Of a stretch of 64,000 nucleotides of DNA, positions 31,710 through 63,812 are shown piece by piece. The translations under genes and the position numbers were made by a program. Position 1 is the stretch's first letter; every line of letters begins with the position of its first letter. Source of the stretch: Bacteroidota bacterium (lineage in GTDB: Bacteria; Bacteroidota; Bacteroidia; UKL13-3); contig JAAFJM010000009.1 of assembly GCA_013298895.1 (NCBI GenBank), positions 18,619 to 82,618 of the forward strand, given 5' to 3'. The notes under the pieces are model-generated. The model had not been told where the DNA came from. It searched no databases and worked only from the letters and a program-made list of their open reading frames with translations.

Positions 31710-31758
31710 ATAGGAACATAGAAAACATGGCATAAACTGATGTTTTCTATGTTCCTAT
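31710..31758. repeat. 18-bp perfect inverted repeat between arsC-like and alr
   Basis: ataggaacatagaaaaca (31710-31727), a 13-nt loop, then tgttttctatgttcctat (31741-31758). Confidence 0.9.
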
Positions 31759-31778
31759 GTGGTTCAAAAATCAATAAA

Positions 31779-39175: not shown

Positions 39176-42100
39176 ATGAAGAAACTTTTTTACCTATTAG
39201 CTTTTACCTACCTAATGGTATTTAGCAAAACTACTTTTGCAAGTCATTTTGCTGGATGCGATATTAGCTATGCTTGTACCTCTACCCCAAATATTTACAA
39301 AGTAACCATGAAAATTTACAGAAGTTGTTCTGGAGTTAACTTCTGCTCTGGTTGTACAAACCCAATTCCAACTGGTAATGTTACAGGTTGTACTACATCA
39401 TCATCAAGTTTTGTTAATAGTATAACTGGTGCCACCGGAACTTTTACAGGCATAAATTATGGTTCATTCAACCTAAATGCATTACCCGGTACAGGTATAG
39501 ACATTGTTGTAACTTGTGACAATTTTAAAACCATTTGTACCAATTGCAACACACGTACTCCAGGCACATACAGTCCAGGTTTAGAAGTTTATGAATTTGA
39601 AGGTAATGTGAATTTATCAGCTATACCTGCTGCATGTTGCAAAGTAATTTTAGGAACAAGCACTTGCTGTTGGAACGGAGGAATTACCACCTTTAATCCT
39701 AGTAGTTTTTATACAGAAGCTATTTTAGATAGATGCCAAACTATTTGCAATTCTGCTCCTATATTTACTAATAATGCAAGACCAATAATTTGCAGTGGCA
39801 TTGATTTTACATATAATTTAGGAGCTATAGACCCTGATGGAGATTCTTTAAGTTATGAATTTGCACCTTCATTAGAAGCCGCCAACTCCAATGTTGCATA
39901 TGTTACACCTTATGGTATTAACAATCCATTTCCTTATTTAGGTGCTCCAAACCCTAATGCATTGTATCCAGCGGGATTACAAATTTTGCCAACAAACGGA
40001 GATATTAGATTTAGACCAATGGGTGTGTTTTCGACTAATTTAGCAATTGGAGTATTTCAGTGGAAATATTTAAATGGCGTTTGGATTAATGTAGGTTATA
40101 CAAGGCGTGACGTTCAAATGGAAACTAGACCTTGTTTTTCAAATAAAGCTTCAATTATAAAAATATATAAAAATGGTATTAGACAGTTTAATAACAACTA
40201 TGAATTAGTAGCAGGACAGCCATTTTGTTTAGATTTAGTTTGCGAAGACCAACAAGATTTGACTATTACTCCTCCAATTAATTCTGATACAACTGAATTA
40301 ACATGGAATAATCCAGGAATTTTTGATTCTACAATGAGTAATGCCACTTTTACAGCTAATTATATTTTATCACAAAGAGGAATGAATGGGCCAAAGGCTG
40401 ATAGTTTTAAATTTTGTTGGACCCCACCAATTAATGCAATTAGAAAAACACCTCACTTTTTCACAGTAATTGGTAATGAAAAGTTATGCCCAATTAAATT
40501 AGGTATTATTTCAGGAATAAGCTTAAAAGTTAGTCCTACACATATTATTATTGATAGCATAATAACAAAAAAAACATTTTGTAACAATAAAATAACAAAT
40601 ACGAATGTAAAATACCAATCAAGAGGAATAAGTCTACTTGTCAACAATTTATTTACTGTTCAATTGTCCGATTCGTTAGGCTCATTTACTAATCCTAGCA
40701 CAATTGGAACTAAAACCAGTACTGATACTATTGGTTTAATTGTAGTTAACATTCCTGCTAATTTACCTTTAAATAAAAATTATAAAATACGTGTAAATTG
40801 TAGTTCCGATAATACTTTAAAAGGAATTGAAATGTCTATTAGTTTTGTTGGAGGTTTTACTAAACCAAGCATTACCAGTAATAAAGATTCAATTTGTAAT
40901 GGTTTAACCGCCAATTTACAAACATCTCATATTGGAGCTGGTTATGTATACAAATGGCTAAAAAACAACCAATTTATAGCGAATGCCACTAATAATAATT
41001 TAACCATTAATAATGATAGCAACTACCGCGTAATTGTTTCTAATACTGGTTGTACTGATACCTCGTTGGTTAAAAAAATTACTATCTTACCAAAACCAAT
41101 AGCCAATATTGGAATAAGTACTTTTTGTGCATCGCCTAATGCTGTAAATATTGTTAATTCATCAACCATAGCTAGCGGAACCATGAGTTATAATTGGACC
41201 TTTAGCGATAATACCACTTCTGCTATTTTATCGCCAAGTAAAACATTTATTGACTCAGGTTCAATTACTGCTAATCTAGTGGTTACCTCTAACTTCAATT
41301 GCAAAGATTCAGTAATCAAAACAATTATTATCAATAGTACACCAAAAGCTAATTTTAATATTAACGATACCTTGCAATGTGTAACTGGAAATCGGTTTAC
41401 ATTATTGAATACCACTACAGGTGGTAGTATTTATAATTGGAATTTTGGAGATAATACAACCAATAACAATGTAAATAATAATAAAGTTTACATCAATGCT
41501 GGAAATTATGCTATCAAATTAGTGGCCTCTGCCAGTGGTTGTAGTGATAGTATTGTTAAAAATGTAAACGTAGTTGCTAAAGCTACCAATGTTGATTTTT
41601 CGGTAAATCAAATGAGCCAATGTTTGCGTGGAAACAATTTTGTGTTTACCAATAATAGTAATCCCAATAATACTACCTTAAGTTATTTATGGACTTTTGA
41701 TAATTTTACAACTTCCACTTTGCGCAATCCTGCTAATTTTTCAACCAATAAAGTGGGTGTAGTTCCAGTTAGTTTGGTGGTAGTTGCCAATGAAAAATGT
41801 ATTGATACCATTTCTAAAAATATTACGGTAACTGCTAATCCGCAAATTGGTACTATTTTAGGGAATGTTAATCCAAATAGTAATGCCACTCCATTTACCT
41901 ATTCGGTATTAAATCAAGCTAATAGCACTTACAATTGGACTGCAACGAACGCTACTGTTCAATCAGGACAAGGAACTAATCAAATCAGTGTGTTATTTAC
42001 CAATGCTGGCAATGCTAAAATTGTAGCGCAAATTACTGATAATAATAATTGTACAGATTCTAATTCATTAAATTTAGCAGTTACTGTTGGCATAAATGAA

Positions 42101-42343
42101 TTGAGTTTGGAAAATGATTTAAAAGTATTTCCAAATCCAACTAAATCAACACTTACCATAACTAATAAAACCAATATGTTAGGTAAAAAATATATTATAA
42201 CGAACCTAATTGGCCAAACAGTTCTTTCGGGTAAACTCAATTTAGACGAAACCGTTATCAATACTGAATCTTTAACCAAAGGTGTTTATTTATTAAGCAT
42301 TGAAGGTATGAACAAACAAGCCATTAAAATTATTAAAGAGTAA
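39176..42343 (+). CDS. T9SS type A-CTD secreted protein with Cys-rich N-terminal region and PKD domains
   Basis: Signal peptide, SHFAGCDISY, DPDGDSLSY, PKD-like repeats (YNWNFGD, YLWTFD) and a CTD with VFPNPT...GVYLL. Confidence 0.88.
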   Translation: MKKLFYLLAFTYLMVFSKTTFASHFAGCDISYACTSTPNIYKVTMKIYRSCSGVNFCSGCTNPIPTGNVTGCTTSSSSFVNSITGATGTFTGINYGSFNLNALPGTGIDIVVTCDNFKTICTNCNTRTPGTYSPGLEVYEFEGNVNLSAIPAACCKVILGTSTCCWNGGITTFNPSSFYTEAILDRCQTICNSAPIFTNNARPIICSGIDFTYNLGAIDPDGDSLSYEFAPSLEAANSNVAYVTPYGINNPFPYLGAPNPNALYPAGLQILPTNGDIRFRPMGVFSTNLAIGVFQWKYLNGVWINVGYTRRDVQMETRPCFSNKASIIKIYKNGIRQFNNNYELVAGQPFCLDLVCEDQQDLTITPPINSDTTELTWNNPGIFDSTMSNATFTANYILSQRGMNGPKADSFKFCWTPPINAIRKTPHFFTVIGNEKLCPIKLGIISGISLKVSPTHIIIDSIITKKTFCNNKITNTNVKYQSRGISLLVNNLFTVQLSDSLGSFTNPSTIGTKTSTDTIGLIVVNIPANLPLNKNYKIRVNCSSDNTLKGIEMSISFVGGFTKPSITSNKDSICNGLTANLQTSHIGAGYVYKWLKNNQFIANATNNNLTINNDSNYRVIVSNTGCTDTSLVKKITILPKPIANIGISTFCASPNAVNIVNSSTIASGTMSYNWTFSDNTTSAILSPSKTFIDSGSITANLVVTSNFNCKDSVIKTIIINSTPKANFNINDTLQCVTGNRFTLLNTTTGGSIYNWNFGDNTTNNNVNNNKVYINAGNYAIKLVASASGCSDSIVKNVNVVAKATNVDFSVNQMSQCLRGNNFVFTNNSNPNNTTLSYLWTFDNFTTSTLRNPANFSTNKVGVVPVSLVVVANEKCIDTISKNITVTANPQIGTILGNVNPNSNATPFTYSVLNQANSTYNWTATNATVQSGQGTNQISVLFTNAGNAKIVAQITDNNNCTDSNSLNLAVTVGINELSLENDLKVFPNPTKSTLTITNKTNMLGKKYIITNLIGQTVLSGKLNLDETVINTESLTKGVYLLSIEGMNKQAIKIIKE

Positions 42344-45532: not shown

Positions 45533-48500
45533 ATGAAAAAACTACTAATAATCGTAACAATTTTATTTTTAAAACTAAATGGATTTGCCCAAGTTATGGG
45601 TAACGAATGGATTAAAACTAATCAACCATATTACAAAATAAAAATTGTAGAACAAGGCATTTATAAAATTGATTCGAATACTTTGGCTCAACTTGGTGTT
45701 AACCTTACAGGCTTAAATCCAAATAGATTTCAAATATTTAAGAATGGCCAAGAACAAGCTTGTTACATTTATGGAGAATCGGATGCCATCTTTAATTCAG
45801 ATGATTACTTAATTTTTTATGGAACTAAAAATGATGGAACTTTAGATACTGAACTTTATAAAAACGCCTACGATCAGCCACATCAATACAATAGTTTGTT
45901 TAGCGATACTTCAGTTTATTTTCTTACCATATTACCCAATAATAGTGCCATTTTAGGAAAACGATTTACAAAGTTTAATGAAACAAATTACAATGCCTAC
46001 ACAGCTGAAAACTACTTTATAAATGAAATAATAGAAGCACCATTAGAAGAATATTATAGAGGAAAATCGGAATTAGTAGGACCAGGTGATTTTTACTATT
46101 TTTCGGAGTACACATCTGGAGAAAGTTGGGTTGATGTAAGATTTGGTTTAGGTGAAAATAAAACATATTCACTCAACACCCCTCACCTATTTGCTGGAGG
46201 GCCGGAAGCCATTTTAGAAACAAAAGTTTTTGGTGTAAGTGATGATAAATCAAATAAGATAAACCATCATTTAAAGTTTGGTATTAGCAATGACAATACT
46301 AATTATACAACGCTTAAGGATACCACATACACAGGTTATACCGAAACTAATTATTACAATATTTTATCAAATTCATTAATAGGAAATACAACCCATATTA
46401 AATTTGAAAATATCCCAGACCTGAATTTAAGTAGTGACTACAACTCTATTTCGTTAATCAAATTGAAGTATGCCTGTCTATTTGATTTTCAAAACTATAA
46501 AGATTTACTTTTTAAGCACAAAACTCAACAAAATGCTTCAAGAATATATTTTCAAATTAACAATTACAGTAAATCAAAGCCAGTTATTTTAGATTTAAAA
46601 AATAACATTATTTCTACCTGCAATCTCATAGGAAATACATTAAATTCCCTAACTCCTAACTTTAACAACGAACAACTTTTCTACATTTTTGATGAATCAG
46701 ATATTAGGTCTATTGGTTCACTTGAGTTAGTAAACATGAATTATATTCAACCCAATTTAAATACCGAATTTTTAATTATTTCAAATAAAAAAATAGAAAC
46801 AGCTGCCATTGCTTATAAAAATTATCGTACACAAAAATTTAACACATCCTTAGTTTATAGCAATGATTTGTATAACCAATTTTATTATGGATACGAGCAC
46901 CCATTAGCAGTATCACATTTATTAAAATACTTATATAACAATCAAACCATTAAACCAAGTTACCTACTTTTATTGGGACGAGGGTATCAAAATAATTTAA
47001 TAAGAAATGGTTTCCAGGATGCCTACAACAATAATTTAGTACCTGCCATAGGCGAACCATCGAGCGACCATATGTTTAGTATAGGTTTGAATCAAAGTAT
47101 GCCTTATACACCTGCTTTGGCTACAGGAAGAATTCCAGCAGCCAATAATGAAGAAGCATTTAATTATCTCAACAAACTTATTAATTATGAAAAAGATACC
47201 ATTTTTGATATTGATTGGAGAAAACAAGTATTGCATGTTTCGGGAGGAAGTGGAAGCGAACAAATAGATTATACAAATCAAGCCAATTATAACAAATCGC
47301 TTATTAGTAACTTATATTATGGTGCTAATGTAACTTCGTTTAATAAAAACACAAGTGGTACAGTACAAACCGATTTTAAGCCAATATTGATAAAGGAGTT
47401 AAACAGTGGAAAAAGTATGATGACTTTTTTAGGACACGGTTCTTTATCGGTATTGGATGTTGATTTTGGAAGGATAAGCGATATGCAAAACACCAATAAG
47501 TATACTTTCTTTTATTTTAATGGGTGCAATATTGGAAATGCAAATGATGCTGACCCACAAGGAAGTGGTAATATTTATGGAAAAGATTTTATAGTAGCAC
47601 CTAATAAAGGAGCAATAGGTTGGCTAGCACACTCTAACCTAACTCTGAGCAATCAACTCTTTATACAGATGAATACCTTTTATAAAAATTTCAGTAAGGA
47701 TTATTATGGAAGTAGTATTGGTAAAATTATTCAGCAAACATTAGCCGTAACTACTGTTTCAGGTGGACTATACGAGGTTTCACATGGTAATCAAATATTA
47801 TTTCAAGGAGATCCTGCATTAAGAATTGGAAGTCCTTTGCTTCCAGATTATGAAATAAAAAATACTGATGTTTTTTTATCAGATAAAAACATAACTGCAT
47901 TAGTGGATTCTTTTGAAATAAATGGTATTGTAAAAAATTTAGGTAAAGCAAATAATGATACCGTGTTTGTATTAATTGAACATACTACCTCCTCCAATAA
48001 TTTAACTTACAGGTATGATAGTATTTTACTTATAACACCTTTATACAAAGATACCTTTTCGGTTAAATTACCAGGAAAAGGAAAATCAATGATTGGCGAT
48101 AATATATTTAAAATAACCATAGATTATCTAAACTTAAAAAATGAAATTAATGAAATAAATAATGAAACTACTGTAACAAAGTTCATTCCTGGTAGTGGCA
48201 TTAATACAATTTATCCAACAAATTATTCAATAGTCAACAGCGATAGTGTTGAACTTGTCGCACAAAACAACGATTTACGTACAGAGAATAAAGAATATAT
48301 TTTTGAAATAGATAATTCGCATTTATTCAATACAAATTCCCCTTTTTATCAAACATCTGGTATTATAAATGCTAATGATTTAGTAAAATGGAAAATTAAA
48401 TTAAACAGTAGTGATACCACTGTATATTACTGGAGGGTTAAAATAAATGTACCCGAAACGCAAGGAGGTATTTGGAACAATGCATCATTCACAAAAATAC

Positions 48501-50569
48501 ATAATGGCAGTTATGGATTTATGCAAAGTACTTTTGAGCAATATAGCAATACAATAGGAATGGATAAAGTATTGGTAGATTCAATTGCTAAACAAATTTC
48601 ATTTGTAAATAGTGAATTAGTTATTGGAATTCAAAACAAAAGATTTGACCATAGAAATATGGGAGTAATTATTCCATATCAATTAAACCAAGGTGTAGGT
48701 ACATGCCCGGGTAATACAGTGGTAGCCTTGGTATTTGAACCATCGCAGGTTGATATTCCTTACGAGATTCCTAACTATCCATTTAACTGCCAATTTATTC
48801 AAGATAATAAAGAAAATAGAAGTAGAAGATATTACCCTTTTGGAACTGAAACTTTATCTGGAAGAAGTGAATTTAAACGTTTTATTGACAGTATTCCCTC
48901 TGGATATTATGTAGCTATTTTTTCGAGATATAACAGTGATATTAACAATTGGGACCAAGCCACTTTAAATAGCTTAAAAAAACTTGGTTCGGTAAAAATA
49001 CCACAAATAAAAAGTAACAATACTGCTTGGGCAATAATTAGTAAAAAAGATGCTGAACCTGGATTCGCTGTGGAAGATACAGTAAATAATGATTCGCTAG
49101 GAGCCTTAGTTAATATGGGGTTGGTAGGATTACCGCCTGCCACCAATCAACCGCAAGACTCTAAAATTTTAGTAATAAAGAAAGGCCTTATTACCAAGTG
49201 GCATACAGGAAGCATTGTGTCAATTCCATTTGGTCCTGTTAGCAGTTGGAATAAACTCAACTTTAATTTTATAGAAAGTGATAATTCAACCAATAGCAAA
49301 TTAAATATTGATTTACTTGGAGTAAATGTCAATGGAATGGATACACTTCTATTCAAAAACATCACAGCTACTAATTTTGATATTAGTACAATAGATGCTA
49401 AAAAAATCCCATTCTTAAAGATTAAATTAAATATGGAAGATAGCGCCAAAAGAACCCCACAACAATTTGGATATTGGCAATTATTAGCTTCGCCAATTGC
49501 AGAGGCTAAGCTTTCTCCAAATATTGCATTTAGCTTAAAAAACAATCCTATTGAAGAAGGAGATTCGTTACAATTAGAAATGGGGATTGAAAATATTAGC
49601 AATACCAATTACGAACCCACTAACTTGAACATAAAAATTGTTAATGAAATGCGGGCGGTTAAATATGAAAAAAATATACCCTTAGACACCATTAATGGCA
49701 ATAGTTTTACAATTGCAAAAACAAAACTTGCCACATTAGGGTTACAAAAAAACAATACTGTTCAGTTTTCATTGAATAATAATAGAAAAACAAATGAATT
49801 AACTTTTGCAAATAACTTTTTCTCAACCAATTTTGACGTTAAAAATGATAAAAGTAATCCATTCTTAGAAGTTACATTTGATGGATCTAAAATAATGAAT
49901 GGTGAAATTGTATCAGCTACCCCAATCATTAACATTACCTCAACTGATAATAACAAATTCATTTTCCAAAAAGATACTGCTTTATTTAATGTGTTACTCA
50001 GAAAACCTAATAGTATTGATTTTGAACGTATCAATTTGAATAGCCCTGAAATTGAATTTATTCCAGCTAAAAACAATAGCAATAAATCAACAATTTTATA
50101 CAGACCTAAAAATCTAACTGATGGAGAATATTCATTAAGAATACAAAGCATGGATGCAGTTGGAAACCCATCAGGAACGAATGATTATGAAGTTTCGTTT
50201 GAAATAATAAACAAATCAAGTATCAGTAATTTTTTACCTTACCCTAATCCTGCTACAACCAATATAAGATTCATTTTTACTTTAACAGGTAGCGTATTAC
50301 CTGATGATTTGTTGATCAGAATTTCTACCATTTCAGGAAAAGTAGTTAAGGAAATAAACAAACAGGAATTTGGTAATATTAAGTTTGGTAATAATATTAG
50401 CGAATATGCTTGGGACGGGAATGATATGTATGGAGATAGATTAGCAAACGGTGTTTATTTATACCAAGTATTTACTACAATAAATCAAAAAAATATAGAA
50501 AACTACAAAATAATTAATAATGATAAATACTTTACACAAGGAGTTGGAAAAATTTACCTGATGCGATAA
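45533..50569 (+). CDS. Large C25-family (gingipain / PorU-like) cysteine peptidase with T9SS CTD
   Basis: Signal peptide, GNEWI, YKIKIVEQGIYKI, YLLLLGRG, GRIPA, putative dyad FLGHGS / FNGC, GDPAL and CTD PYPNP...NGVYLY. Confidence 0.9.
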   Translation: MKKLLIIVTILFLKLNGFAQVMGNEWIKTNQPYYKIKIVEQGIYKIDSNTLAQLGVNLTGLNPNRFQIFKNGQEQACYIYGESDAIFNSDDYLIFYGTKNDGTLDTELYKNAYDQPHQYNSLFSDTSVYFLTILPNNSAILGKRFTKFNETNYNAYTAENYFINEIIEAPLEEYYRGKSELVGPGDFYYFSEYTSGESWVDVRFGLGENKTYSLNTPHLFAGGPEAILETKVFGVSDDKSNKINHHLKFGISNDNTNYTTLKDTTYTGYTETNYYNILSNSLIGNTTHIKFENIPDLNLSSDYNSISLIKLKYACLFDFQNYKDLLFKHKTQQNASRIYFQINNYSKSKPVILDLKNNIISTCNLIGNTLNSLTPNFNNEQLFYIFDESDIRSIGSLELVNMNYIQPNLNTEFLIISNKKIETAAIAYKNYRTQKFNTSLVYSNDLYNQFYYGYEHPLAVSHLLKYLYNNQTIKPSYLLLLGRGYQNNLIRNGFQDAYNNNLVPAIGEPSSDHMFSIGLNQSMPYTPALATGRIPAANNEEAFNYLNKLINYEKDTIFDIDWRKQVLHVSGGSGSEQIDYTNQANYNKSLISNLYYGANVTSFNKNTSGTVQTDFKPILIKELNSGKSMMTFLGHGSLSVLDVDFGRISDMQNTNKYTFFYFNGCNIGNANDADPQGSGNIYGKDFIVAPNKGAIGWLAHSNLTLSNQLFIQMNTFYKNFSKDYYGSSIGKIIQQTLAVTTVSGGLYEVSHGNQILFQGDPALRIGSPLLPDYEIKNTDVFLSDKNITALVDSFEINGIVKNLGKANNDTVFVLIEHTTSSNNLTYRYDSILLITPLYKDTFSVKLPGKGKSMIGDNIFKITIDYLNLKNEINEINNETTVTKFIPGSGINTIYPTNYSIVNSDSVELVAQNNDLRTENKEYIFEIDNSHLFNTNSPFYQTSGIINANDLVKWKIKLNSSDTTVYYWRVKINVPETQGGIWNNASFTKIHNGSYGFMQSTFEQYSNTIGMDKVLVDSIAKQISFVNSELVIGIQNKRFDHRNMGVIIPYQLNQGVGTCPGNTVVALVFEPSQVDIPYEIPNYPFNCQFIQDNKENRSRRYYPFGTETLSGRSEFKRFIDSIPSGYYVAIFSRYNSDINNWDQATLNSLKKLGSVKIPQIKSNNTAWAIISKKDAEPGFAVEDTVNNDSLGALVNMGLVGLPPATNQPQDSKILVIKKGLITKWHTGSIVSIPFGPVSSWNKLNFNFIESDNSTNSKLNIDLLGVNVNGMDTLLFKNITATNFDISTIDAKKIPFLKIKLNMEDSAKRTPQQFGYWQLLASPIAEAKLSPNIAFSLKNNPIEEGDSLQLEMGIENISNTNYEPTNLNIKIVNEMRAVKYEKNIPLDTINGNSFTIAKTKLATLGLQKNNTVQFSLNNNRKTNELTFANNFFSTNFDVKNDKSNPFLEVTFDGSKIMNGEIVSATPIINITSTDNNKFIFQKDTALFNVLLRKPNSIDFERINLNSPEIEFIPAKNNSNKSTILYRPKNLTDGEYSLRIQSMDAVGNPSGTNDYEVSFEIINKSSISNFLPYPNPATTNIRFIFTLTGSVLPDDLLIRISTISGKVVKEINKQEFGNIKFGNNISEYAWDGNDMYGDRLANGVYLYQVFTTINQKNIENYKIINNDKYFTQGVGKIYLMR

Positions 50570-51527: not shown

Positions 51528-54245
51528 CTATTTTACTTGATATACAAATAATTTATTGTCAAAATCGGATGTGATTAAAAAATAATTCTCATCGTTATTT
51601 AAATGACCAAAAGTGAAGAAATAATTGGCATTAACAGGGAAGTTTTCTAGTAAGGAATTATTTAATTTTTCTAAATAAACCTTACCTTTTAAACTATCGA
51701 GGTAACAAACATGCACAGCTCCATTTTTATAAATTAATTCAAGCTGAGGACTAGAAGAATCTGTAAGATTTTTAGTATAAATCCTATTTCCTATACTGTT
51801 AAATAAGTTAACTTTCTGATTTCTGTTTTCATAAAAATAAAAGTTACTATTTAAGTCAAAATTATCTGTGGGAATAAAATTAATATTTGTTAGTATGATA
51901 TCCTTTTTAGTCCCATTAGTGTGGTATTCTTTTACCTTAAAATTATTGGTAGAATCAATATAATAAAATTTTATAAAACCAGTATCAATAACTTGGTGGT
52001 TCATGTATTTATAAACAGCATTACTATCTAATCCAAAATAAGAATATGGCTTCCCATTAAATTGATAAAAATTGAGTTTACCTTTTTCGTTAATAACATA
52101 ACTAATTAATTCATTTCTGAATTTAAACGACTTAATATTTTGAATTGGATTAGGATAACTATTCTTTGGATTCCAACCACTTTGAAGCCTACCTTGAATA
52201 TTGTAACACCAAATTTTATAATACTTACCAACAGCAAAAATTTGATACGACTTATCATTTAAATAATCACTAACTTGAATTGGATAATTAGTTCCTGTTG
52301 GTATCCAAATGGGATATCCTTGCACATTTTTACCAGTTTCATCAATTAAATATATTTGACTATTGGTATTAAACAAATATTGCGTATTTCCGTTGTTAAA
52401 GGCATCTACTTGATTAACATTCCCTACTATTTTCCCTGAAATTGGTACCTTAAATAGAACCTTACTTTCATTATTGATTAAGTAAACTTGATTTCTCAAA
52501 TCTTGAATAAAAATACAGTTTTGGTTAGTACTTGAATTAAATACAATTTGCGGTTTTATGGCTAAATTTGTATCAATAGCTAACTCCCATAGTAATTCAG
52601 TTTTACTGTTTGAAGTTGTATTGAAATCAATTTGCACATTGGTTAAATAGTTTTTATCATTAGTGGCATTCATTTGATAACTTACAAATCTTGTCTTTTT
52701 AAAATAACCCATATTTGATTTGTAATCATCTACCAATTCTGAATTAACAATTGACTCCATCTGAGGGACAAATAAATTATTATTAATAAAAAATTCAATA
52801 TTGGAGTTAATGCTAAGTTCTGATTGATGTGCTAAATAATTGGCATCCTTGGCTAATAAATTACCTTTTAATTGACTATTATAAAAACTACTTAAAACCA
52901 ATGCGTTATTGGCAAACAAAACGTACTCGCCATAAACCAAGGCATAATTGGCTTGCTTATTTAAAAAAATATTGCCCCATGTATAATCGAAGTAATTAAG
53001 TAAATTTATTTTGTACAAATTGGGTAATTTACTGATTATTGTATCGGCATTGAGAGAGTCATTTATTGCAATAGCTTTTAGTTGATTTAAAAGCTTTTCT
53101 TTGTTTTTTAATTTAACTGCAAGCACCTCACAACTATCAAAACTGAACTGTACATTACTTAAGTTTACTTGCAAAACCTCATTACCAAAATTTTCAATCA
53201 ATTGATTGTATAGATTATAATTTTGCTTTATGATATTGATGCTATCGCGTGTTATGTTTTTAGTATTTATTTTATTAACTGTGTAATATTCTTTTAAATT
53301 TTGAGCAAATAAATTTTCATTACTAAAATTAACTCCAAAAAAATAACTTGTATTACTTGGCAACAATTTTTTAAAATTAAACTCCTGCGCTTGCATGTTG
53401 TTAAAGCAATCGTAATATTGAAAAGTTACATCATCGGTTATAGTAACACCTTTAAGTGAAATACTGCTATTTGAAACATTAACGCCAAAGGCACTCCATG
53501 CAGCAAAATTGGGAAGATTAGCAGTAACACCTAATTTGGAAAGATCAACGAATGCGCTTAAAAAAGTAGGAATATTTTTATGGTTAATATATAAATTATA
53601 GTTTCCTAAACTTTTCACAAAACTCAACTTATCAAGTTTAGAAGTTTCATATGCCTTCTTGTTATCAATATTAATCAATGTTTCTTCAATCAATTGACCA
53701 TTTTCAGAGATTGCTAAAATCTTATTCTTAAAAGCTAGGCTAAATTTTTTTTGTGTTTTAAAATCAAGAAAATCATAGATAACATTTCCAAAAAACTTTC
53801 TTTTACTTATGGTTAACCTATTTTTATTATTTTGAAATATCCAATTAGTAATATCCGACATTTCGAACTTCTTTTTTGTTTCAAATAAAACCAAAGCATC
53901 AATTGATTTATTAGCATAGCCATGAAAAGAGATAGTTATATTTTCATTACTTTTCCAATCGTTAAAATTTTCTTCAAAACTTAAAATACTATCTAAATAC
54001 CTTATAGAATTATTGGCTTCACCTAATACCTTATTATTGGTAAGTTGTTGCCAAAACAATTGGTTATTCAATAATTTGTATTGTAAACTAAAATTATTAA
54101 CCTCTAATGCCAGGACTGTATTTTGAGGTAACACATTTATAGCATGAATTGACTTAGTATTAATCTTTGAAAAGTAAAATACAAACAAAAAAATTACTAT
54201 TAATACCGAAGTAATTACAACACCTGTTATAAAATTTCTATTCAT
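51528..54245 (-). CDS. Conserved hypothetical exported protein (DUF3352-like)
   Basis: N-terminal signal anchor, 905 aa, and a C-terminal region with beta-propeller-like repeats (QVDAFNNG, DYLNDK, G.P motifs). Confidence 0.6.
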   Translation of the reverse strand: MNRNFITGVVITSVLIVIFLFVFYFSKINTKSIHAINVLPQNTVLALEVNNFSLQYKLLNNQLFWQQLTNNKVLGEANNSIRYLDSILSFEENFNDWKSNENITISFHGYANKSIDALVLFETKKKFEMSDITNWIFQNNKNRLTISKRKFFGNVIYDFLDFKTQKKFSLAFKNKILAISENGQLIEETLINIDNKKAYETSKLDKLSFVKSLGNYNLYINHKNIPTFLSAFVDLSKLGVTANLPNFAAWSAFGVNVSNSSISLKGVTITDDVTFQYYDCFNNMQAQEFNFKKLLPSNTSYFFGVNFSNENLFAQNLKEYYTVNKINTKNITRDSINIIKQNYNLYNQLIENFGNEVLQVNLSNVQFSFDSCEVLAVKLKNKEKLLNQLKAIAINDSLNADTIISKLPNLYKINLLNYFDYTWGNIFLNKQANYALVYGEYVLFANNALVLSSFYNSQLKGNLLAKDANYLAHQSELSINSNIEFFINNNLFVPQMESIVNSELVDDYKSNMGYFKKTRFVSYQMNATNDKNYLTNVQIDFNTTSNSKTELLWELAIDTNLAIKPQIVFNSSTNQNCIFIQDLRNQVYLINNESKVLFKVPISGKIVGNVNQVDAFNNGNTQYLFNTNSQIYLIDETGKNVQGYPIWIPTGTNYPIQVSDYLNDKSYQIFAVGKYYKIWCYNIQGRLQSGWNPKNSYPNPIQNIKSFKFRNELISYVINEKGKLNFYQFNGKPYSYFGLDSNAVYKYMNHQVIDTGFIKFYYIDSTNNFKVKEYHTNGTKKDIILTNINFIPTDNFDLNSNFYFYENRNQKVNLFNSIGNRIYTKNLTDSSSPQLELIYKNGAVHVCYLDSLKGKVYLEKLNNSLLENFPVNANYFFTFGHLNNDENYFLITSDFDNKLFVYQVK

Positions 54246-56621: not shown

Positions 56622-57611
56622 ATGTCAGAGTCAAACTTTGTAGATTACGTTAAAATATGTTGCCGAAGTGGCAAGGGGGGAAAGGGTGCAATGCATTTTA
56701 TGCGCGATAAACATACTGCTAAAGGTGGCCCGGATGGTGGTGATGGTGGCAGAGGTGGACATATTATACTTCGCGGAAGTAATAACGCTTGGACATTATT
56801 GCATTTAAAATACCGTAAACATGTAATAGCAGAACCAGGAGGAAATGGAGATGCAGCTTTGCGCCATGGTGCCAATGGAGAAGATATTTTTATTGATGTG
56901 CCTCTAGGAACCGTTGCTAAAGATGCTGAAACAAATGAGGTTTTAGCCGAAATTACTGAAAATGGTCAAGAGTATATAATTCTTAAAGGCGGAAGAGGTG
57001 GTTTGGGTAATCATCATTTCAAAAACTCAGTAAATCAAAATCCTCGCTATGCGCAACCAGGTGAAGATGGCCGTGAAGAATGGAAGGTTTTAGAACTTAA
57101 AGTGTTGGCCGATATTGGTTTAGTTGGATTTCCAAATGCAGGAAAATCAACCTTATTATCGGTAATTACTGCTGCAAAACCCGAAATAGCCGATTATCCA
57201 TTTACTACTTTGGTACCTAATTTAGGAATTGTAAAATACCATGATTATAAAAGTTTTGTGGTAGCCGATATTCCAGGAATTATTGAAGGTGCTCACGAAG
57301 GAAAAGGCTTAGGAACACGTTTTTTACGCCATATTGAACGAAATGCAACTTTACTCTTTATGATTCCCGCTACTAGCGAAGATATAAAAAGTGAATATAA
57401 AATTTTATTAAATGAGCTGAAGCAATATAACAAAGAGCTTGGCGATAAAAAAAGATTGCTTGCCATTACCAAATGTGATTTGGTGGATGAAGAAACTTTA
57501 AAGGCAATTAAGAAATTACTACCACGTGGTATTCCGAACATTTTTATAAGCTCTGCTAATAATAAAAATATTAGTGAACTAAAAGATAAGTTGTGGGAAA
57601 TGATTAATTAA
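56622..57611 (+). CDS. obgE: GTPase Obg
   Basis: [34 protein letters not shown] and TKCD. Confidence 0.97.
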
Positions 57612-57804
57612 TAATTAATTTCAAACTAATATGTGTTGTAATTGGCATCAAAAAACTTGAGAATATTTCTCACCTAAAAACTTTCCCCATACCTGTTCAA
57701 GTTATTTTTATAAAAAATGAAGATGCTGAAATAACAGATGATAGGTATAAAAATAAATACTTTATTGGTACCATTATGAAATATACAAATTGGGTGTAAT
57801 AAAC

Positions 57805-57991
57805 AATCCTGAAAGTATTGAATATGAATAGCCACGAATGCAATGCATGGATGAAAATGAGCCAAGCAAAACAACTCTGAAGGAGTTGAATATACATGCT
57901 GTTATTTAACCCTTTCAGGATTAGTTTATATCTAAATAAATAATACTGGGTTAACATCAAAGCCTATTCGGATTCAACTCATTAAGAGTTG
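57805..57991. repeat. Degenerate REP/BIME-like cluster of nested inverted repeats
   Basis: aatcctgaaag (57805) pairs with ctttcaggatt (57912). caactctgaaggagttgaat (57872) matches the reverse complement of 57972-57991 at 18/20. Confidence 0.65.
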
Positions 57992-58373
57992 AGGTACAGT
58001 GTAATTTAGTTTTTTACTTTAACGATGCGTATTTTTTATTTGAAAAATCATCAAACAAGAACAACTTATGCAACTATTTGCTAGTTGTTAGAGCACACCA
58101 AACAATAAGCTAACTCACACATTTGGCTTGTAACTCCAACAAAATAGCAAGTCGCATTTTGCATTTAGTTGGTATTGCATTTAGAAGAAATAAATTGTTG
58201 GTTTTGCTGCGCTTAAACCACAACGCCTTAAAGATAAAAAATTAGTCATGCAGCGCATGTCCTTTATTGGGCAACCAATACTCCATTAGCTATCTTGGTT
58301 TCCATGGAAAGGAATTTCCTTTGAAAATGAGTTGTTGGTGCCGCTGCGCTTAAACACCTAACAACGGCTGATT

Positions 58374-58498
58374 GGGCAATGGGCAATGGGCAATGGGCAA
58401 TGGGCAATGGGCAATGGGCAATGGGCAAAACGAATTTTTCTAAACTTAACTTACAAATTAACTTATTAACCTATCAACTCCCGATTTATCGGGACAAC
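58374..58498 (+). repeat. (GGGCAAT)x7 array plus 73-bp direct repeat, copy 1
   Basis: Array at 58374-58422. The unit 58426-58498 matches 61627-61699 at 71/73. Confidence 0.95.
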
Positions 58499-58590
58499 TC
58501 CATCAACCAACTAACAATACAACAATTCGACCAATCGACCAATTTTAAAACACTAACAACCAACAAAATACTAAAAACATTTTTGAGGCT

Positions 58591-58617
58591 TGAAACTTTT
58601 TGGTTTAGTTATGCAAC
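58591..58617 (+). promoter_or_regulatory. Candidate ECF-type (autoregulatory) promoter
   Basis: TGAAAC-N16-GCAAC lies 27 bp before the sigma gene. ECF -35 elements typically contain AAC. Confidence 0.35.
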
Positions 58618-58644
58618 CTACTGACATAACAAGTAAATAAAAAT

Positions 58645-59187
58645 TTGCAAATTAATATTTCAAAACAAGAGCATTTTATGAGTTTGTATCAGCCGCTGCA
58701 TGCGCGGTTGAGCAGGTTTGTGCAAACATTGGTTTGGGATAATGAAGAAGCGAAAGATGTGGTGAGCGAAACAGTTTTAGTGGCTTTTGAAAGTTTTGAG
58801 AAACTTGAAAACGAAAATGCTTTTTTGAGTTATTTATTCAGTATTGCAAGCAATTTGGTCAATAAAAAACTAAGGCGTAAAAAGTTTTGGGGCTTGTTTG
58901 ATACTGATAAAGCGGCAAACAAACCTGATAATTTTAACAGTGAAAGTTCGTTGATGAAATACGAACTGAACAAAGCTTTAAAACGCCTGCCCTCTAAACA
59001 AAGTGAGGCATTGGTTTGGTACGAAATAAGTGGTTTGAGTATGGACGAAATTGCAACAATTCATGGCATTACGGTTAATGGTGTAAAAACCAATATTAGC
59101 CGTGCGCGCAAAACGTTAGCTTTATGGCTCGAAAAAGATGAAACACAATCGGTAAAAAATATGAAAGGAGTTTGGAATGAGCAATAA
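58645..59187 (+). CDS. ECF RNA polymerase sigma factor
   Basis: Region 2 (LSRFV, AKDVVSET, FLSYLFSIASN) and region 4 (LKRLP, GLSMDEIA, VKTNISRAR). 180 aa, TTG start. Confidence 0.95.
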   Translation: MQINISKQEHFMSLYQPLHARLSRFVQTLVWDNEEAKDVVSETVLVAFESFEKLENENAFLSYLFSIASNLVNKKLRRKKFWGLFDTDKAANKPDNFNSESSLMKYELNKALKRLPSKQSEALVWYEISGLSMDEIATIHGITVNGVKTNISRARKTLALWLEKDETQSVKNMKGVWNEQ

Positions 59188-61474
59188 ACTAAATCAATTA
59201 TTAGAAAATGCTAAACACGAAAACCCTTTGTTAACCGAAAATGATGTTATTTCTGTTATCAACAACCGCAGTTTACTTGGTAAAAAACAAACATTTTTCA
59301 CCTTAAAAAATATTTTAATCATGTCGGTATTAAGTAGCATAATAATTGGGTTATGGATGGTATTTTATCCAACAGCAACCACCAATTTAACAGAGCAAAC
59401 TTCAAGAACTTCGCCTAAAAACAAGGAGCAATTAACTGAAAAATCTGAAGAAAATAATTTGTTAGCTGATGTTGATAACAATAAGAAGTTTACAACAACT
59501 AAAGAAACTAGGAAGTCATTACAAGTGTTTGATAGCCTTAAAAATTTTCCAGCAATACATAATAAACCTGCTACAAAATTATTTGATCCTATTCCATTTA
59601 CTCCCCTATTTAACGAAAAACCAATTGACGATAACCGCACCTATTTTGACAAAGATGGTTATTTGATTTTAACCAACGAAGAACTAGCTAAACTAGGTAT
59701 TATAACTGATGGAAATGTGTTGAAATATGAGAATGTAACGGATACATTTTTTACTTTTAAAGAAAATGGAAAAATAACAACACAACATACTTCATTTAAA
59801 CTTAATGTAGAAGAGCATGGAAGCAGAAGCACTAGCCTTGGAATATCAAAAGATACTGTAATTATTAAAAAATCTCTACCTTTTTGGGCTGCATCACTTT
59901 CAATTATTAATTTTCCAATTGCCATAAATACAACTAATAAAAAAGATAGCAGTCATCAAATTATTGAATTCCTAAATGGTAATAGTTATGAAAATGATTT
60001 CCTTAAAGAAATAGAATCAATGTTGGTTCCAATTGTAGTTCATTTAAAATCTGTTCCACATAAATACAGCAGTGATTTAAAATTGATATTTTGGTTCAAA
60101 ACTGAACCTAAATTTTATGAAGTATTAAGTAATGATATTGCAAACGCTGTAGAGCATAAATATGGCACTTCCACAGAAAGTGATTACAAGAGAATTTTAT
60201 ATAAATACAGAGGTTTTTCAAGAAAAACTGCTCAAAAAGGATTTGATTCTTTAATAGTAAAAAGACTTCAAAAAAATTATATTCAATTAAATGATAAACA
60301 ATTAAAAGAGTTGAATATTACAAAAAAGAGAAATGGATTTAAATTAAAAAGCTACCAAAACATTGATAATAGAACCAATATTTTAAGACTTAAAGTAAAG
60401 AATGGAAATTCCGAATGCTATGACAATGTGAATATTTTGAATTTAATCAAACGGAAAAATCCGCAATACCTTGTAGTTGCAAAAACTGATATTTCAATAA
60501 AACATATTCATTATTTAATGCAATTTTCTGATAGTGTTCCTCATTCCAAACAAAATGAAATGGCAAGCAAATATTTCAGAGAAAACGTTCAGAAATTGAT
60601 TCCAATTAAAGTAGATTCTTCTTATTTAATTTGGTTTGAACCAACCGAGGACTTGAAGCGAATTATAGATAAACAAAACAAACAAATTACGAGAACACAT
60701 ATTTACAATAATTTAAAACTAGACTTATTAAACTTAAACGAGTTTGAACTGAAAAAATTAGGTATAAGCTTCGAAAAAAAGGCCATAAAAATGCCTATTA
60801 TTTCTTATAAAAACAGCACTGTATTTATAAGTTTAAGAAAACGAAATTCAAGTACATTATTCCATTTTGACACATCAGAAAATCAAAACAAACCATTATA
60901 TCCTATTCCATTATTAGTTACTGACCAATCTGGACTATATTGGCGTTTCTATAATTTAGATACCACTTACGAGGTTGGAAAATTTAATGAATATACCAGC
61001 AAAATGACACAACAATTGAATAATTGTATCCCAATCAAAATAGTTCAAAATAACGTTTCCATTATTGCTTGGTATGAACCTGATAGCTTATTTTTAAGTT
61101 CATTACCAAATACAGAATCAACTGAAATAAAAACTGAATACCATGCCATTTCAAATAATCTGCCAGCGCCTAGCTGCAAGTATTTTGAGGTTTGCCAAAA
61201 TGTAACTGGAAAAATAAATTCCTATTTGGCGTATCCAAATCCGGCTGAACAAACCCTGAATATTGAAATAGATTTAGCAGAAGAACGCCAATTAGAGTTT
61301 ATAATAACTGATATTACTGGAAAAATTATTAAAACCCTAAACCAAAATTTAAACCAAGCCAAAGGCACTCAAACGTACACCTATCAAATTGGTGAATTAA
61401 CCGAAGGCATGTATTTATTGGTTATAACAACCGACAAAGGAGAAAAAGTGAGTACGAGGATTGTGAAAAGATGA
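59177..61474 (+). CDS. Single-TM anti-sigma-like protein with three internal repeats and a T9SS type A CTD
   Basis: Overlaps the sigma gene by 11 bp. TM at about aa 46-64, three repeats, and a CTD AYPNPA...ITDITGK...GMYLL...TRIVKR. Confidence 0.75.
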
Positions 61475-61521: not shown

Positions 61522-61699
61522 CAATAGGCAATAGGCAATAGGCAATAGGCAATAGGCAATAGGCAATAGGCAATAGGCAATAGGCAATAGGCAATAGGCA
61601 ATAGGCAATAGGCAATAGGCAATAGGCAAAACGAATTTTTCTAAACCTAACTTACAAATTAACTTATTAACCTATCAACTCCCTATTTATCGGGACAAC
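61522..61699 (+). repeat. (CAATAGG)x15 array plus 73-bp direct repeat, copy 2
   Basis: A perfect 105-bp array at 61522-61626 is followed by the unit 61627-61699. Confidence 0.95.
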
Positions 61700-61800: not shown

Positions 61801-62910
61801 ATGAAATATTTTATTGTTGCAGGCGAAGCAAGTGGCGATTTGCATGGTGCCAATTTAATAAAAGCCATTAAACAAAAAGATGCACAAGCTGAATTTCAGT
61901 TTTGGGGTGGCGATTTAATGCAGGCGCAAGCCGATGGTTTACTTATGCATTATAACCAAACGGCTATCATGGGTTTTGTGGAGGTTTTGCTTAAAATTAG
62001 AACCATTTTAGGCTTTCTAAGTTTATGCAAAAAACAAATTACTGCATTTAAACCCGATGTGGTTATATTAATTGATTACCCTGGCTTTAATCTTAGAATA
62101 GCTGAATTTGCCAAGCAACAACATATTAAAACTGTATATTACATAGCTCCAAAAGTTTGGGCTTGGAAAGAAAACAGAGCCAAAAAATTAGAAAAATTTG
62201 TAGATGAATTATTGCTCATTTTTCCTTTTGAGGTATCGTATTTTAAAAAATGGCAAATAAAAGCATCGTATATTGGTAATCCATTATTGGATGAAATAAA
62301 CGCTTTTGTTCATGACCCTGATTTTAAAACTAAAAATAATTTATCGCCACAAAAACCAATCATAGCTTTATTGCCCGGTAGCCGCAAACAAGAAATTAGC
62401 ACTACCCTACCCAATATGATGTTGCTTGCACAAGCTTATCCAAATTATGAATTTGTGATTTGTGCTGCACCATCTATAAAGCCTGAGTTTTACCAAACTT
62501 TTATTGGACCAAACACTAAAATTATATACAATAAAACTTACGAAGTTTTGCATTTAGCCAAGGCTGCCATAGTTTGTAGCGGAACAGCTACTTTAGAAAC
62601 AGCTTTGTTTAAAGTACCTCAAGTGTGCGCTTATGTGGCTAATCAAATTTCATATGTTATAGCCAAACAATTTGTGAAAATAAAATACATATCGTTGGTT
62701 AATTTAAATTTGGATAAACCTGCCATTAACGAATTGATTCAACAAGATTATACCTTACAAAGGCTAAAGCAAGAGTTTGAAGCTGTGTTGCCAACCGGTA
62801 ATAAATATGAGGCTTTGATGCAAGATTATGCAACTTTAGCAACTGAACTTAACAAACAAGGAGCAAGCAATAATGCTGCTCAAATTATTATTGATTTAAT
62901 TAAAAAATGA
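61801..62910 (+). CDS. lpxB: Lipid-A-disaccharide synthase
   Basis: AGEASGDLHG, IDYPGFN, PKVWAW, LLPGSRKQE and SGTATLE. Confidence 0.97.
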   Translation: MKYFIVAGEASGDLHGANLIKAIKQKDAQAEFQFWGGDLMQAQADGLLMHYNQTAIMGFVEVLLKIRTILGFLSLCKKQITAFKPDVVILIDYPGFNLRIAEFAKQQHIKTVYYIAPKVWAWKENRAKKLEKFVDELLLIFPFEVSYFKKWQIKASYIGNPLLDEINAFVHDPDFKTKNNLSPQKPIIALLPGSRKQEISTTLPNMMLLAQAYPNYEFVICAAPSIKPEFYQTFIGPNTKIIYNKTYEVLHLAKAAIVCSGTATLETALFKVPQVCAYVANQISYVIAKQFVKIKYISLVNLNLDKPAINELIQQDYTLQRLKQEFEAVLPTGNKYEALMQDYATLATELNKQGASNNAAQIIIDLIKK

Positions 62911-63812
62911 GAATTATATTTTTAGGAACTCCCGATTTTTCGGTTCCATCGCTAGATGCTATAGTAAAAGCCGGACACGAAGTAGTAGCAGTAGTTACCA
63001 TGCCCGATAAACCTGCTGGACGCGGCATGCAATTGCAACAAAGTGCAGTAAAAAAATATGCGGTTGAAAACAATATAAAAGTATTACAACCTGTTAAGTT
63101 AAAAGACCCTGAATTTATAGCTGAACTGCAAAGTTTAAATGCTGATTTGCAAGTGGTGATTGCTTTTAGAATGTTGCCTCAAATAGTTTGGCAAATGCCT
63201 AAGTTTGGCACTTTAAATTTACATGCCTCTTTACTTCCTGATTACCGTGGTGCAGCGCCAATTAATTGGGCTATCATCAATGGCGAAACCAAAACAGGTG
63301 TGAGTACTTTTTTCTTAAAACATGAAATTGATACAGGCGATGTGTTGTTAACCAAAGAGGTAGCAATTACACCAACTATGAAGGCAGGTGAGCTGCACGA
63401 TTTGCTGATGCAAGTTGGAGCAGAAACTGTGGTAAAATCATTAGCATTAATTGAAAGTGGTAATACCAAAGGCACACCTCAAGGCGATGACAATAACAAA
63501 ATGGCGCCAAAAATTTTTAAGGAACATTGCCTTATTAACTTTAACCAAAGCGGACAAAATATTTATAATTTAATCAGAGGTTTAAGTCCATACCCAGCGG
63601 CATTTACGCATTTTGATAATAAAATATTGAAGGTTTACGAATCTACATTCGAAGCATCAAACCATCAAGAACCAATTGGCAAGATGATGAGTGACAATAA
63701 AACATTTTTAAAAGTAGCTTGCCAAGATGGATATATTCATTTATTGCAAATTCAACTAGAAGGCAAAAAACGCATGAAAGTAGATGAGTTTTTGAGGGGA
63801 AATAAGATTTGA
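62907..63812 (+). CDS. fmt: Methionyl-tRNA formyltransferase
   Basis: FLGTPDF, PDKPAGRG, NLHASLLPDYRGAAPI, DTGD and IRGLSPYP. Confidence 0.97.
   Translation: MRIIFLGTPDFSVPSLDAIVKAGHEVVAVVTMPDKPAGRGMQLQQSAVKKYAVENNIKVLQPVKLKDPEFIAELQSLNADLQVVIAFRMLPQIVWQMPKFGTLNLHASLLPDYRGAAPINWAIINGETKTGVSTFFLKHEIDTGDVLLTKEVAITPTMKAGELHDLLMQVGAETVVKSLALIESGNTKGTPQGDDNNKMAPKIFKEHCLINFNQSGQNIYNLIRGLSPYPAAFTHFDNKILKVYESTFEASNHQEPIGKMMSDNKTFLKVACQDGYIHLLQIQLEGKKRMKVDEFLRGNKI

Follow-up and report, generated by a model that had tools for sequence, protein, structure and literature searches.

A putative anti-sigma factor with a type IX secretion sorting domain, encoded beside an extracytoplasmic function sigma factor in Bacteroidota

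Can a protein that carries a sorting signal of the T9SS (type IX secretion system) at its C-terminus also act, through its N-terminus, as the membrane-anchored partner of a sigma factor? The question is raised by two same-strand open reading frames (ORFs) that lie between obg (56622-57611) and lpxB/fmt (61801-63812) in a 64,000-nt stretch of DNA from a Bacteroidota bacterium. This whole stretch is called the window here, its coordinates are used throughout, and L-numbers denote loci fetched for comparison. The upstream ORF encodes an extracytoplasmic function (ECF) sigma factor. The downstream ORF (59177-61474, + strand) encodes a 765-aa protein, hereafter the partner, which ORF, domain and family data describe as a single-pass membrane protein that is coupled to the sigma factor and carries a T9SS C-terminal sorting domain (CTD), and as a putative anti-sigma factor. 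T9SS cargo is by definition a Sec-exported periplasmic protein with a cleaved signal peptide and a CTD. A family that joins a CTD to an uncleaved-looking inner-membrane anchor and a sigma-coupled cytoplasmic module contradicts this standard picture of T9SS cargo. The original prediction, made from the letters of the window, had listed an 11-bp gene overlap, a single hydrophobic helix, a linker, three repeats, a Cys pair and a CTD from aa 686, and all of these elements were found. We consider it likely that the two genes encode a sigma/anti-sigma pair whose anti-sigma factor has a T9SS-tagged outer part. For the composite mechanism proposed below, in which an anchored sigma partner has its outer part exported by the T9SS, and loss of that part leads to site-2 cleavage and release of the sigma factor, we estimate a probability of about 0.5.

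The mechanical ORF of the sigma gene spans 58645-59187 with a TTG start. Because homologous loci all begin with MSLYQP or MALYQP, the true start is most likely the ATG at 58678, which gives a protein of 169 aa (MSLYQPLHARL...; 58678-59187, + strand). It contained Sigma70_r2 (PF04542, E 7.9e-9) and Sigma70_r4_2 (PF08281, E 1.7e-14), and scored 69.1 bits with TIGR02937 against a cut-off of 42.9. ECF (group 4) sigma-70 factors were taken as proteins of about 170-200 aa with sigma-2 and sigma-4 domains only, and by domain content and length the 169-aa protein is one of them, as had been predicted. Its nearest solved relatives were ECF sigmas such as SigW, SigE and SigL. The sigma subfamily models all remained below their cut-offs, the best being TIGR02985 (85.1 vs 126.4) and NF058625 (81.5 vs 130). 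The sigma stop codon (TAA, 59185-59187) and the ATG of the 765-aa ORF (59177) account for the 11-bp overlap, and the two genes probably form a translationally coupled, autoregulated module.

We searched for relatives of the partner with the family profile in an exhaustive HMMER search of 1.84 billion cluster representatives, which retrieved 727 clusters at E<=1e-10, of which 80 passed E<=1e-30. A word-index search returned 19 close relatives, all from uncultured Bacteroidia, and the best annotation among them was 'T9SS type A sorting domain-containing protein'; with aa 1-74 alone as the query, one fragment was returned. The metagenome scan worked with a subfamily alignment (A4) that is narrower than the 25-sequence alignment A3, whose divergence was too great. 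The original prediction had proposed checking adjacency to ECF genes among homologues. An ECF sigma gene lay directly upstream of the partner gene in all 14 informative loci found via the partner (the window, L001, L002, L003, L005, L007, L009, L010, L011, L013, L021, L028, L029 and L030). This adjacency held in unrelated neighbourhoods, for partners with identity as low as about 29% and in a marine subfamily that is only distantly related. In each locus examined the two genes either overlapped, as was usual, or lay no more than 12 bp apart. When the search was started from the sigma factor, homologues with 62-34% identity were found to precede family members in L015, L017, L019, L022 and L025. 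In L023, where the sigma factor is 51% identical, the partner has 302 aa; its N-terminal motif and transmembrane segment are kept, while its outer part is unrelated and contains neither the repeats nor the CTD. What it shares with the window partner is the N-terminal module. At the sequence level this module is the sole feature common to all partners of the sigma clade, and for this reason we read it as the sigma-binding part. These data indicate that the pairing of a sigma factor with a CTD partner is a large, uncurated Bacteroidota family and no chance juxtaposition.

Among the closer relatives of the window, the pair sits in many neighbourhoods and so seems to have moved. In several distant relatives the pair adjoins secA (L015, L017 and L025) or lies just 5' of an MTHFR gene (L002 and L015). 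Downstream of a CTD-less member and MTHFR in L016, an ORF with an Ntox21 toxin domain (7053-7559) is followed by a small ORF. PADLOC returned nothing for the sigma and partner proteins.

The first 43 residues of the partner (59177-59305, + strand) are hydrophilic, with two short helices predicted at aa 2-15 and 21-28 by a low-confidence AlphaFold2 (AF2) model. They carry the family motif L-x-x-[LYF]-F-x-x-A-[KR]-x3-P-[LVI]-h-x-x-[ED][ED]-[VI]-x-x-L-[IL], which was conserved in 118 representative clusters, and would constitute the cytoplasmic, sigma-binding module. The segment that follows (aa 44-64; 59306-59368, + strand) is the one hydrophobic segment of the protein, with a 19-residue Kyte-Doolittle maximum of 2.31 at aa 46, and coincides with a helix at aa 44-63 in the AF2 model. 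The charge is +3 in the 15 aa before the segment and 0 net after it, and no AxA-like or [AGS]Q site was found behind it, in line with the original remark that no clear signal peptidase site is present. We also considered whether a downstream start (TTG at aa 18, ATG at aa 49 or 61) could create a normal signal peptide; this was rejected because no in-frame candidate leaves a charged n-region followed by an h-region. By these heuristics, no cleavable Sec signal peptide of the kind found in T9SS type A cargo was recognised in the partner, and the positive-inside charges together with the single hydrophobic segment suggest an N-in, single-pass signal-anchor. Beyond the membrane, aa 65-152 (59369-59632, + strand) would form a tether rich in K, S, N, T, E and P. 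Residues 64-152 were disordered in the AF2 model, with a pLDDT (predicted local distance difference test) value below 50 and without secondary structure.

The same architecture was observed across the family when the N-termini of the 130 best HMMER hits longer than 350 aa were surveyed. A long hydrophilic N-terminus followed by an uncharged segment was present in 118 of the 130, the other 12 being apparently N-terminally truncated or just below threshold, and a classical signal peptide was present in none. The hydrophilic stretch measured 28-60 aa (median 48), and the uncharged segment had a median of 22 residues, with 10th and 90th percentiles of 19 and 29. The 15 aa before the segment carried a net charge of +3.6, against +0.3 behind it. 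Signal-peptidase-type motifs were rarer than in shuffled controls (AxA-like, 39 vs 58.8; [AGS]Q, 13 vs 20.1). The stretch between the transmembrane segment and the first repeat, polar in composition, had a median length of 138 aa and a 10th percentile of 81, and never fell below 45. The survey thus bears out the claim that these are N-in, single-pass proteins rather than ordinary cargo.

The CTD (aa 686-765; 61232-61471, + strand) is the sole curated domain of the partner. Por_Secre_tail (PF18962) matched aa 686-763 with an E value of 2e-12 and 47.7 bits against 27, and TIGR04183, the model on which the link to the T9SS had been made to depend, gave 41.4 bits where 23 is the cut-off. The YPNP and terminal motifs are retained, and the modelled beta-sandwich matched the RemZ CTD bound in the SprA-PorV translocon (8gl8_D) with a TM-score of 0.65. 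Profile and structure matches together indicate a bona fide type A T9SS CTD. Residues 656-765, comprising the Cys loop and the CTD, were 84-96% identical among close homologues and more conserved than the repeats. Two further genes of the window point to a T9SS in the organism; core T9SS genes such as sprA and gldKLMN do not lie in the window, and no search aimed at them was made. One (45533-50569, + strand) encodes a PorU2-like sortase homologue of 1678 aa with Peptidase_C25 and an ILEI-like domain, which scored 661.8 bits against 450 with NF052324 (putative T9SS sortase PorU2) and 239 against 420 with the canonical PorU model. The other (39176-42343, + strand) encodes, according to the domain scan, an ordinary T9SS cargo with PKD repeats and Por_Secre_tail. 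The cargo and the PorU2-like protein start with classical signal peptides, MKKLFYLLAFTYLMVFSKTTFA and MKKLLIIVTILFLKLNGFA.

Three repeats lie between the tether and the Cys loop: repeat 1 at aa 153-350 (59633-60226), repeat 2 at aa 355-512 (60239-60712) and repeat 3 at aa 513-655 (60713-61141), all on the + strand and delimited with hhalign. Each is an alpha/beta domain of 140-200 aa with an E-L-x-K-L-G-I helix at its start and L-I-P-I-x-V ... I-x-W-[FY]-E-P at its end; in repeat 1 these read ELAKLGI and LVPIVV...IFWFK. A BLASTP comparison of the 765-aa protein against itself did not detect the repeats, and profile-profile comparison was needed. With hhalign on alignment slices, repeats 1 and 3 matched with 95.6% probability (E 1.3e-8) and repeats 2 and 3 with 94.6% (E 6.6e-8), and between repeats 1 and 2 the C-terminal part alone matched (E 0.026). 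Repeat 3 is the type most widely conserved in distant members, and the repeat number in the family ranges from one to about six. Modelled alone, repeat 1 had a pLDDT of 87.7 and a predicted template modelling score (pTM) of 0.86. Foldseek gave no fold match for this model in the Protein Data Bank (PDB; best E 0.022, TM-score at most 0.23), and the full model matched PDB and BFVD entries in the CTD alone. After repeat 3 comes the invariant Cys pair, C-K-Y-F-E-V-C (aa 667-673; 61175-61195, + strand; alignments A1 and A3), with the family form CxYFExC. C667 and C673 were invariant in A1, and a W and the two C were the sole invariant columns in the diverse alignment A3 (25 sequences). Such a pair is consistent with an oxidising, extracytoplasmic location.

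Comparison with the syntenic locus L007 showed that repeats 1 and 2 can be replaced between near-identical strains. Obg, the sigma factor, LpxB and Fmt were 96-98% identical between the two loci, against 67% overall for the partner. Along the partner, identity was 98% over aa 1-40, 88% over aa 41-80, 22-48% over aa 201-480 and 92-100% over aa 521-760. At the DNA level it dropped from 94-98% to 33-60% solely within about 59750-60650 (+ strand), a mosaic block that covers most of repeats 1 and 2. Among 16 homologues, the alleles of repeats 1, 2 and 3 assorted independently, and the N-terminus and the Cys loop with the CTD stayed constant. A multi-copy paralogue family as the source of the variable middles was considered and rejected, because the genome scan showed a single locus in each genome. 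Such cassette-like replacement fits, by analogy, a surface-exposed or recognition protein and suggests diversifying pressure as for phage receptors or recognition proteins; the hypervariability itself would fit either surface exposure or the binding of variable ligands. It argues that the CTD is really used, and real use of the T9SS appears strengthened by CTD conservation and surface-type hypervariability taken together.

The upstream regions of 12 loci were aligned, and a conserved ECF-type motif, GAAACTTT-N15-AACCTAC (58592-58621, + strand), was found 57 nt 5' of the sigma ATG in the window; it was conserved also in distant loci. The pattern GAAACTTT-N15-AAC[CA]TAC had a single occurrence in the 64-kb window, against 0.01 expected, and a single exact copy was present in each of 15 among the 20 loci fetched by then. 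The remaining five were L010, which has just 4 nt of upstream DNA, L011 and L019/L020, where the sequence deviates, and L014, which is not a locus of the partner family and matched by its CTD only. In most loci the sigma ATG follows the motif at a distance of 57-90 nt; in L009, which has a rearranged upstream region, the distance is about 220 nt. We regard the motif as a putative promoter, and presume that the operon is autoregulated.

A direct repeat brackets the operon, at 58373-58498 upstream and 61522-61699 downstream. The upstream bracket consists of a heptamer array, (TGGGCAA)x8, and a unit of ~75 nt, and the downstream bracket of (CAATAGG)x15 and a copy of that unit with 93% identity. 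The heptamer copy number is not the same in L007, and the core of the ~75-nt unit is also found 5' of the sigma gene in L001, in another genomic context. The brackets are possibly a recombination scar, the boundaries of a mobile cassette or a contingency repeat. The 1066-nt spacer between obg and the sigma gene (57612-58677) contains no convincing ORF. It is 89% identical to that of L007 (about 95% across the first 470 nt) and holds paired inverted repeats (57805-57922 and 57872-57991) and a duplicated GCTGCGCTTAAAC box. Rfam gave no match on the whole window nor on this 1-kb spacer.

The composite mechanism that we favour would join these elements as follows. The sigma factor would be kept at the inner membrane by the 43-aa N-terminal module, a putative new short anti-sigma domain. 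The outer part, made up of the disordered tether, three copies of a domain without fold match, the Cys loop and the CTD, would be recognised by the T9SS via the CTD, and would reach the surface or be released from it. Because the N-terminus of the partner is anchored, export would require that the tether be cut or pulled. Once the outer part is lost, the membrane stub would be open to site-2 (RseP-type) intramembrane proteolysis, a course known from other anti-sigma pathways of regulated proteolysis. The sigma factor released in this way would switch on its own promoter along with an unspecified regulon, and its activity would tell what had become of the outer part, be it T9SS export or a ligand-dependent pull at the surface. 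A stronger variant makes T9SS engagement, or a pull on the CTD driven by the proton motive force, the very trigger that activates the sigma factor: the secretion machine would extract the anti-sigma factor or tear the tether, intramembrane proteolysis would clear the stub, and the polymorphic repeats would add ligand or surface specificity. We regard this variant as doubtful. If it were true, sigma activity would be a direct read-out of T9SS flux and a secretion checkpoint for a Bacteroidota-specific machine. The pair offers a simple genetic handle on the coupling, in Bacteroidota, between gene expression and type IX secretion or surface events, and it adds three uncurated modules, namely the short N-terminal motif, the alpha/beta repeat and the Cys loop before the CTD. 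The family is common in uncultured freshwater and marine Bacteroidia, which is probably why it has so far gone undescribed. In a literature search of incomplete coverage, no anti-sigma factor with a T9SS CTD at its end was found described, which is absence of evidence only.

Several observations weigh against the composite mechanism. No anti-sigma domain was recognised in the partner by Pfam/NCBIfam searches of the whole protein at E<=1 and of four N-termini at E<=10. A profile of 23 N-termini searched against PDB sequences had its best match, to unrelated proteins, at E 0.078. The class I ASD/ZAS zf-HC2, RskA, FecR and RsgI_N domains were tested for in the partner and none was found. The AF2 model of the N-terminal region has low confidence, and the topology call rests on hydropathy, charge and motif heuristics. 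No site-1 protease site and no SEA-like or GAIN-like autoproteolytic domain was found, and Foldseek gave no match of that kind. A 1:1 autoregulated pair whose anti-sigma factor is consumed by export would need an extra brake, and none was identified. The promoter-pattern scan of the 64-kb window revealed no regulon member besides the operon itself. Finally, three members are CTD-less (L015p, 494 aa; L021/P0016, 503 aa; L025p, 477 aa), ending cleanly after repeat 2 with unrelated genes next, and 14 of 117 representatives (about 12%) had no CTD match. T9SS engagement therefore cannot be essential for sigma control in all members, and T9SS coupling is weakened as an obligatory feature. The outcomes that the original prediction had named as refuting it were not observed, and the control of sigma activity by T9SS engagement that it proposed is a hypothesis.

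The evidence must also be held against other explanations of the same locus. The partner might be an ordinary T9SS cargo with an extended but cleaved signal peptide, much as the signal peptides of some autotransporters carry a conserved N-terminal extension, so that the sigma factor merely activates the cargo gene and is not controlled by its product. The genuine CTD, an outer part resembling a polymorphic surface protein, and the failure of Pfam and PDB-sequence profile searches to recognise an anti-sigma domain would all suit such a cargo, and the sequence by itself leaves room for cleavage. We nevertheless judge it quite unlikely, given a hydrophobic segment of transmembrane length (family median 22 uncharged residues) and AxA-like and [AGS]Q motifs that fall below the shuffled expectation. 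The N-terminal motif is moreover kept in the CTD-less L015p and L025p and in L023p, which has neither CTD nor repeats, and a secretion-specific signal extension would not explain its presence there. The overlapping, coupled genes at almost every locus are also typical of sigma/anti-sigma stoichiometry. Alternatively, the partner could be a sensing anti-sigma factor that stays in the periplasm, with a CTD that is inert or serves as a docking module reading T9SS status or load, for example at PorV, PorN or GldN. An anchored N-terminus is indeed hard to square with passage through the SprA translocon, the CTD-less members show that the sensor can work without a CTD, and a tether of at least 45 aa (10th percentile 81) would let the outer part reach across the periplasm. 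However, the CTD scores well above the family cut-off and is the best-conserved outer region among close homologues, and the replacement of repeats amid flanks of 96-98% identity is a trait of surface proteins that would be unusual for periplasmic sensors. On balance, a periplasm-resident sensor seems unlikely.

A more radical proposal is a single chain spanning the envelope, with the N-terminus bound to the sigma factor, the tether running through the periplasm and the outer membrane, and the repeats on the surface, where ligand binding would be passed on mechanically. One chain would then do the job of FecA-FecR-FecI. The tether of about 88 aa would measure roughly 30 nm fully extended, no family member has fewer than 45 aa between the transmembrane segment and the first repeat, no protease site or autoproteolytic domain was detected, and the surface-type hypervariability fits here too. 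None of the data, however, favour such a chain specifically, and it would occupy a translocon. We know of no mechanism by which a chain would stay threaded through the outer membrane once the T9SS has transported it, and PorU normally cuts type A CTD cargo, which is then attached to anionic lipopolysaccharide. Both points, the threading and the PorU cleavage, count against this arrangement, which we consider highly improbable.

Elsewhere in the window, about 23 co-directional genes run from 642 to 23620 on the - strand, ending with a Wzz/GNVR/AAA_31 tyrosine-kinase-type chain-length regulator (20475-22871). The run is probably a surface polysaccharide biosynthesis cluster, judged from the one gene of it that was scanned. 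An 836-aa fusion of a Mur ligase middle domain with an alanine racemase is encoded at 31740-34250 (+ strand). A 905-aa ORF at 51528-54245 (- strand) has an N-terminal hydrophobic segment, and no Pfam/NCBIfam family matched it.

Turning to known systems, the analogy with FlgM and sigma-28 of the flagellar type III secretion system, suggested in the original prediction, holds in concept only: an anti-sigma factor bears an export signal and its secretion relieves inhibition. FlgM is small, soluble and exported whole from the cytoplasm, whereas the partner has 765 aa, is apparently membrane-anchored and carries its export signal on the periplasmic side, and RsgI/SigI is the closer parallel. The N-terminus resembles that of the class II anti-sigma factor CnrY, which has a cytoplasmic sigma-binding region of about 30-45 aa with two helices and a single transmembrane segment. 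CnrY has almost no periplasmic part and requires a separate sensor, CnrX. The short two-helix N-terminus and single transmembrane segment are thus alike in CnrY and the partner, and sequence similarity is undetectable. The FecI/FecR/FecA systems, including the pairs of Bacteroides polysaccharide utilisation loci, also combine an ECF sigma factor with an adjacent single-pass, N-in anti-sigma factor, and FecR-type anti-sigmas report events at the cell surface. They differ in having a FecR domain, absent from the partner, and a TonB-dependent outer-membrane transducer. No TonB-dependent receptor gene is adjacent in the operon of the window, and L019 and L023 have one 1-3 kb away. By analogy, the CTD of the partner may stand in for the separate outer-membrane partner of FecR systems.

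PorA of Porphyromonas gingivalis is a CTD protein that acts upstream of PorXY-SigP (PMC7712824), and it likewise links a T9SS CTD protein with ECF sigma activity. PorA differs from the partner: it is made with a normal signal peptide, lacks a cytoplasmic domain and acts as a separate protein of the outer membrane or surface. It signals via the two-component system PorY/PorX, and its gene is not beside sigP. Apart from PorA (PMC7712824), we found no published link between a CTD protein and ECF sigma activity in a literature search of incomplete coverage.

The closest functional analogue of the module appears to be SigI/RsgI, described for Clostridium (Hungateiclostridium) thermocellum and Bacillus subtilis (PMC10328401, PMC10556640, PMC12203970). 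RsgI consists of an N-terminal anti-sigma domain, a transmembrane segment, a disordered region and a sensing domain, and loss of its outer part triggers site-2 cleavage (PMC10556640, PMC10328401). Some differences exist between the two systems. RsgI works in a monoderm host, with no outer membrane to cross, and its sigma factor is SigI, not an ECF sigma. RsgI has RsgI_N and an autoproteolytic SEAL domain, neither of which was detected in the partner, and the CTD occurs in the partner only. The juxtamembrane region, where a SEAL domain would be expected, was disordered here, and nothing SEA-like or GAIN-like matched when the whole model and repeat 1 were compared with the PDB in Foldseek. The overall layout is nonetheless shared: a short cytoplasmic N-terminal sigma-binding domain (in the partner, a putative one), one transmembrane segment, an extracytoplasmic disordered region and outward-exposed C-terminal modules, which in RsgI sense external material. 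Both systems also place the gene beside its sigma gene; the SigI/RsgI pair is autoregulated, and the module of the window is presumed to be. The mechanism proposed here would follow the same course as that of RsgI, in which the outer part is lost, a site-2 protease cuts the remaining stub and the sigma factor is set free.

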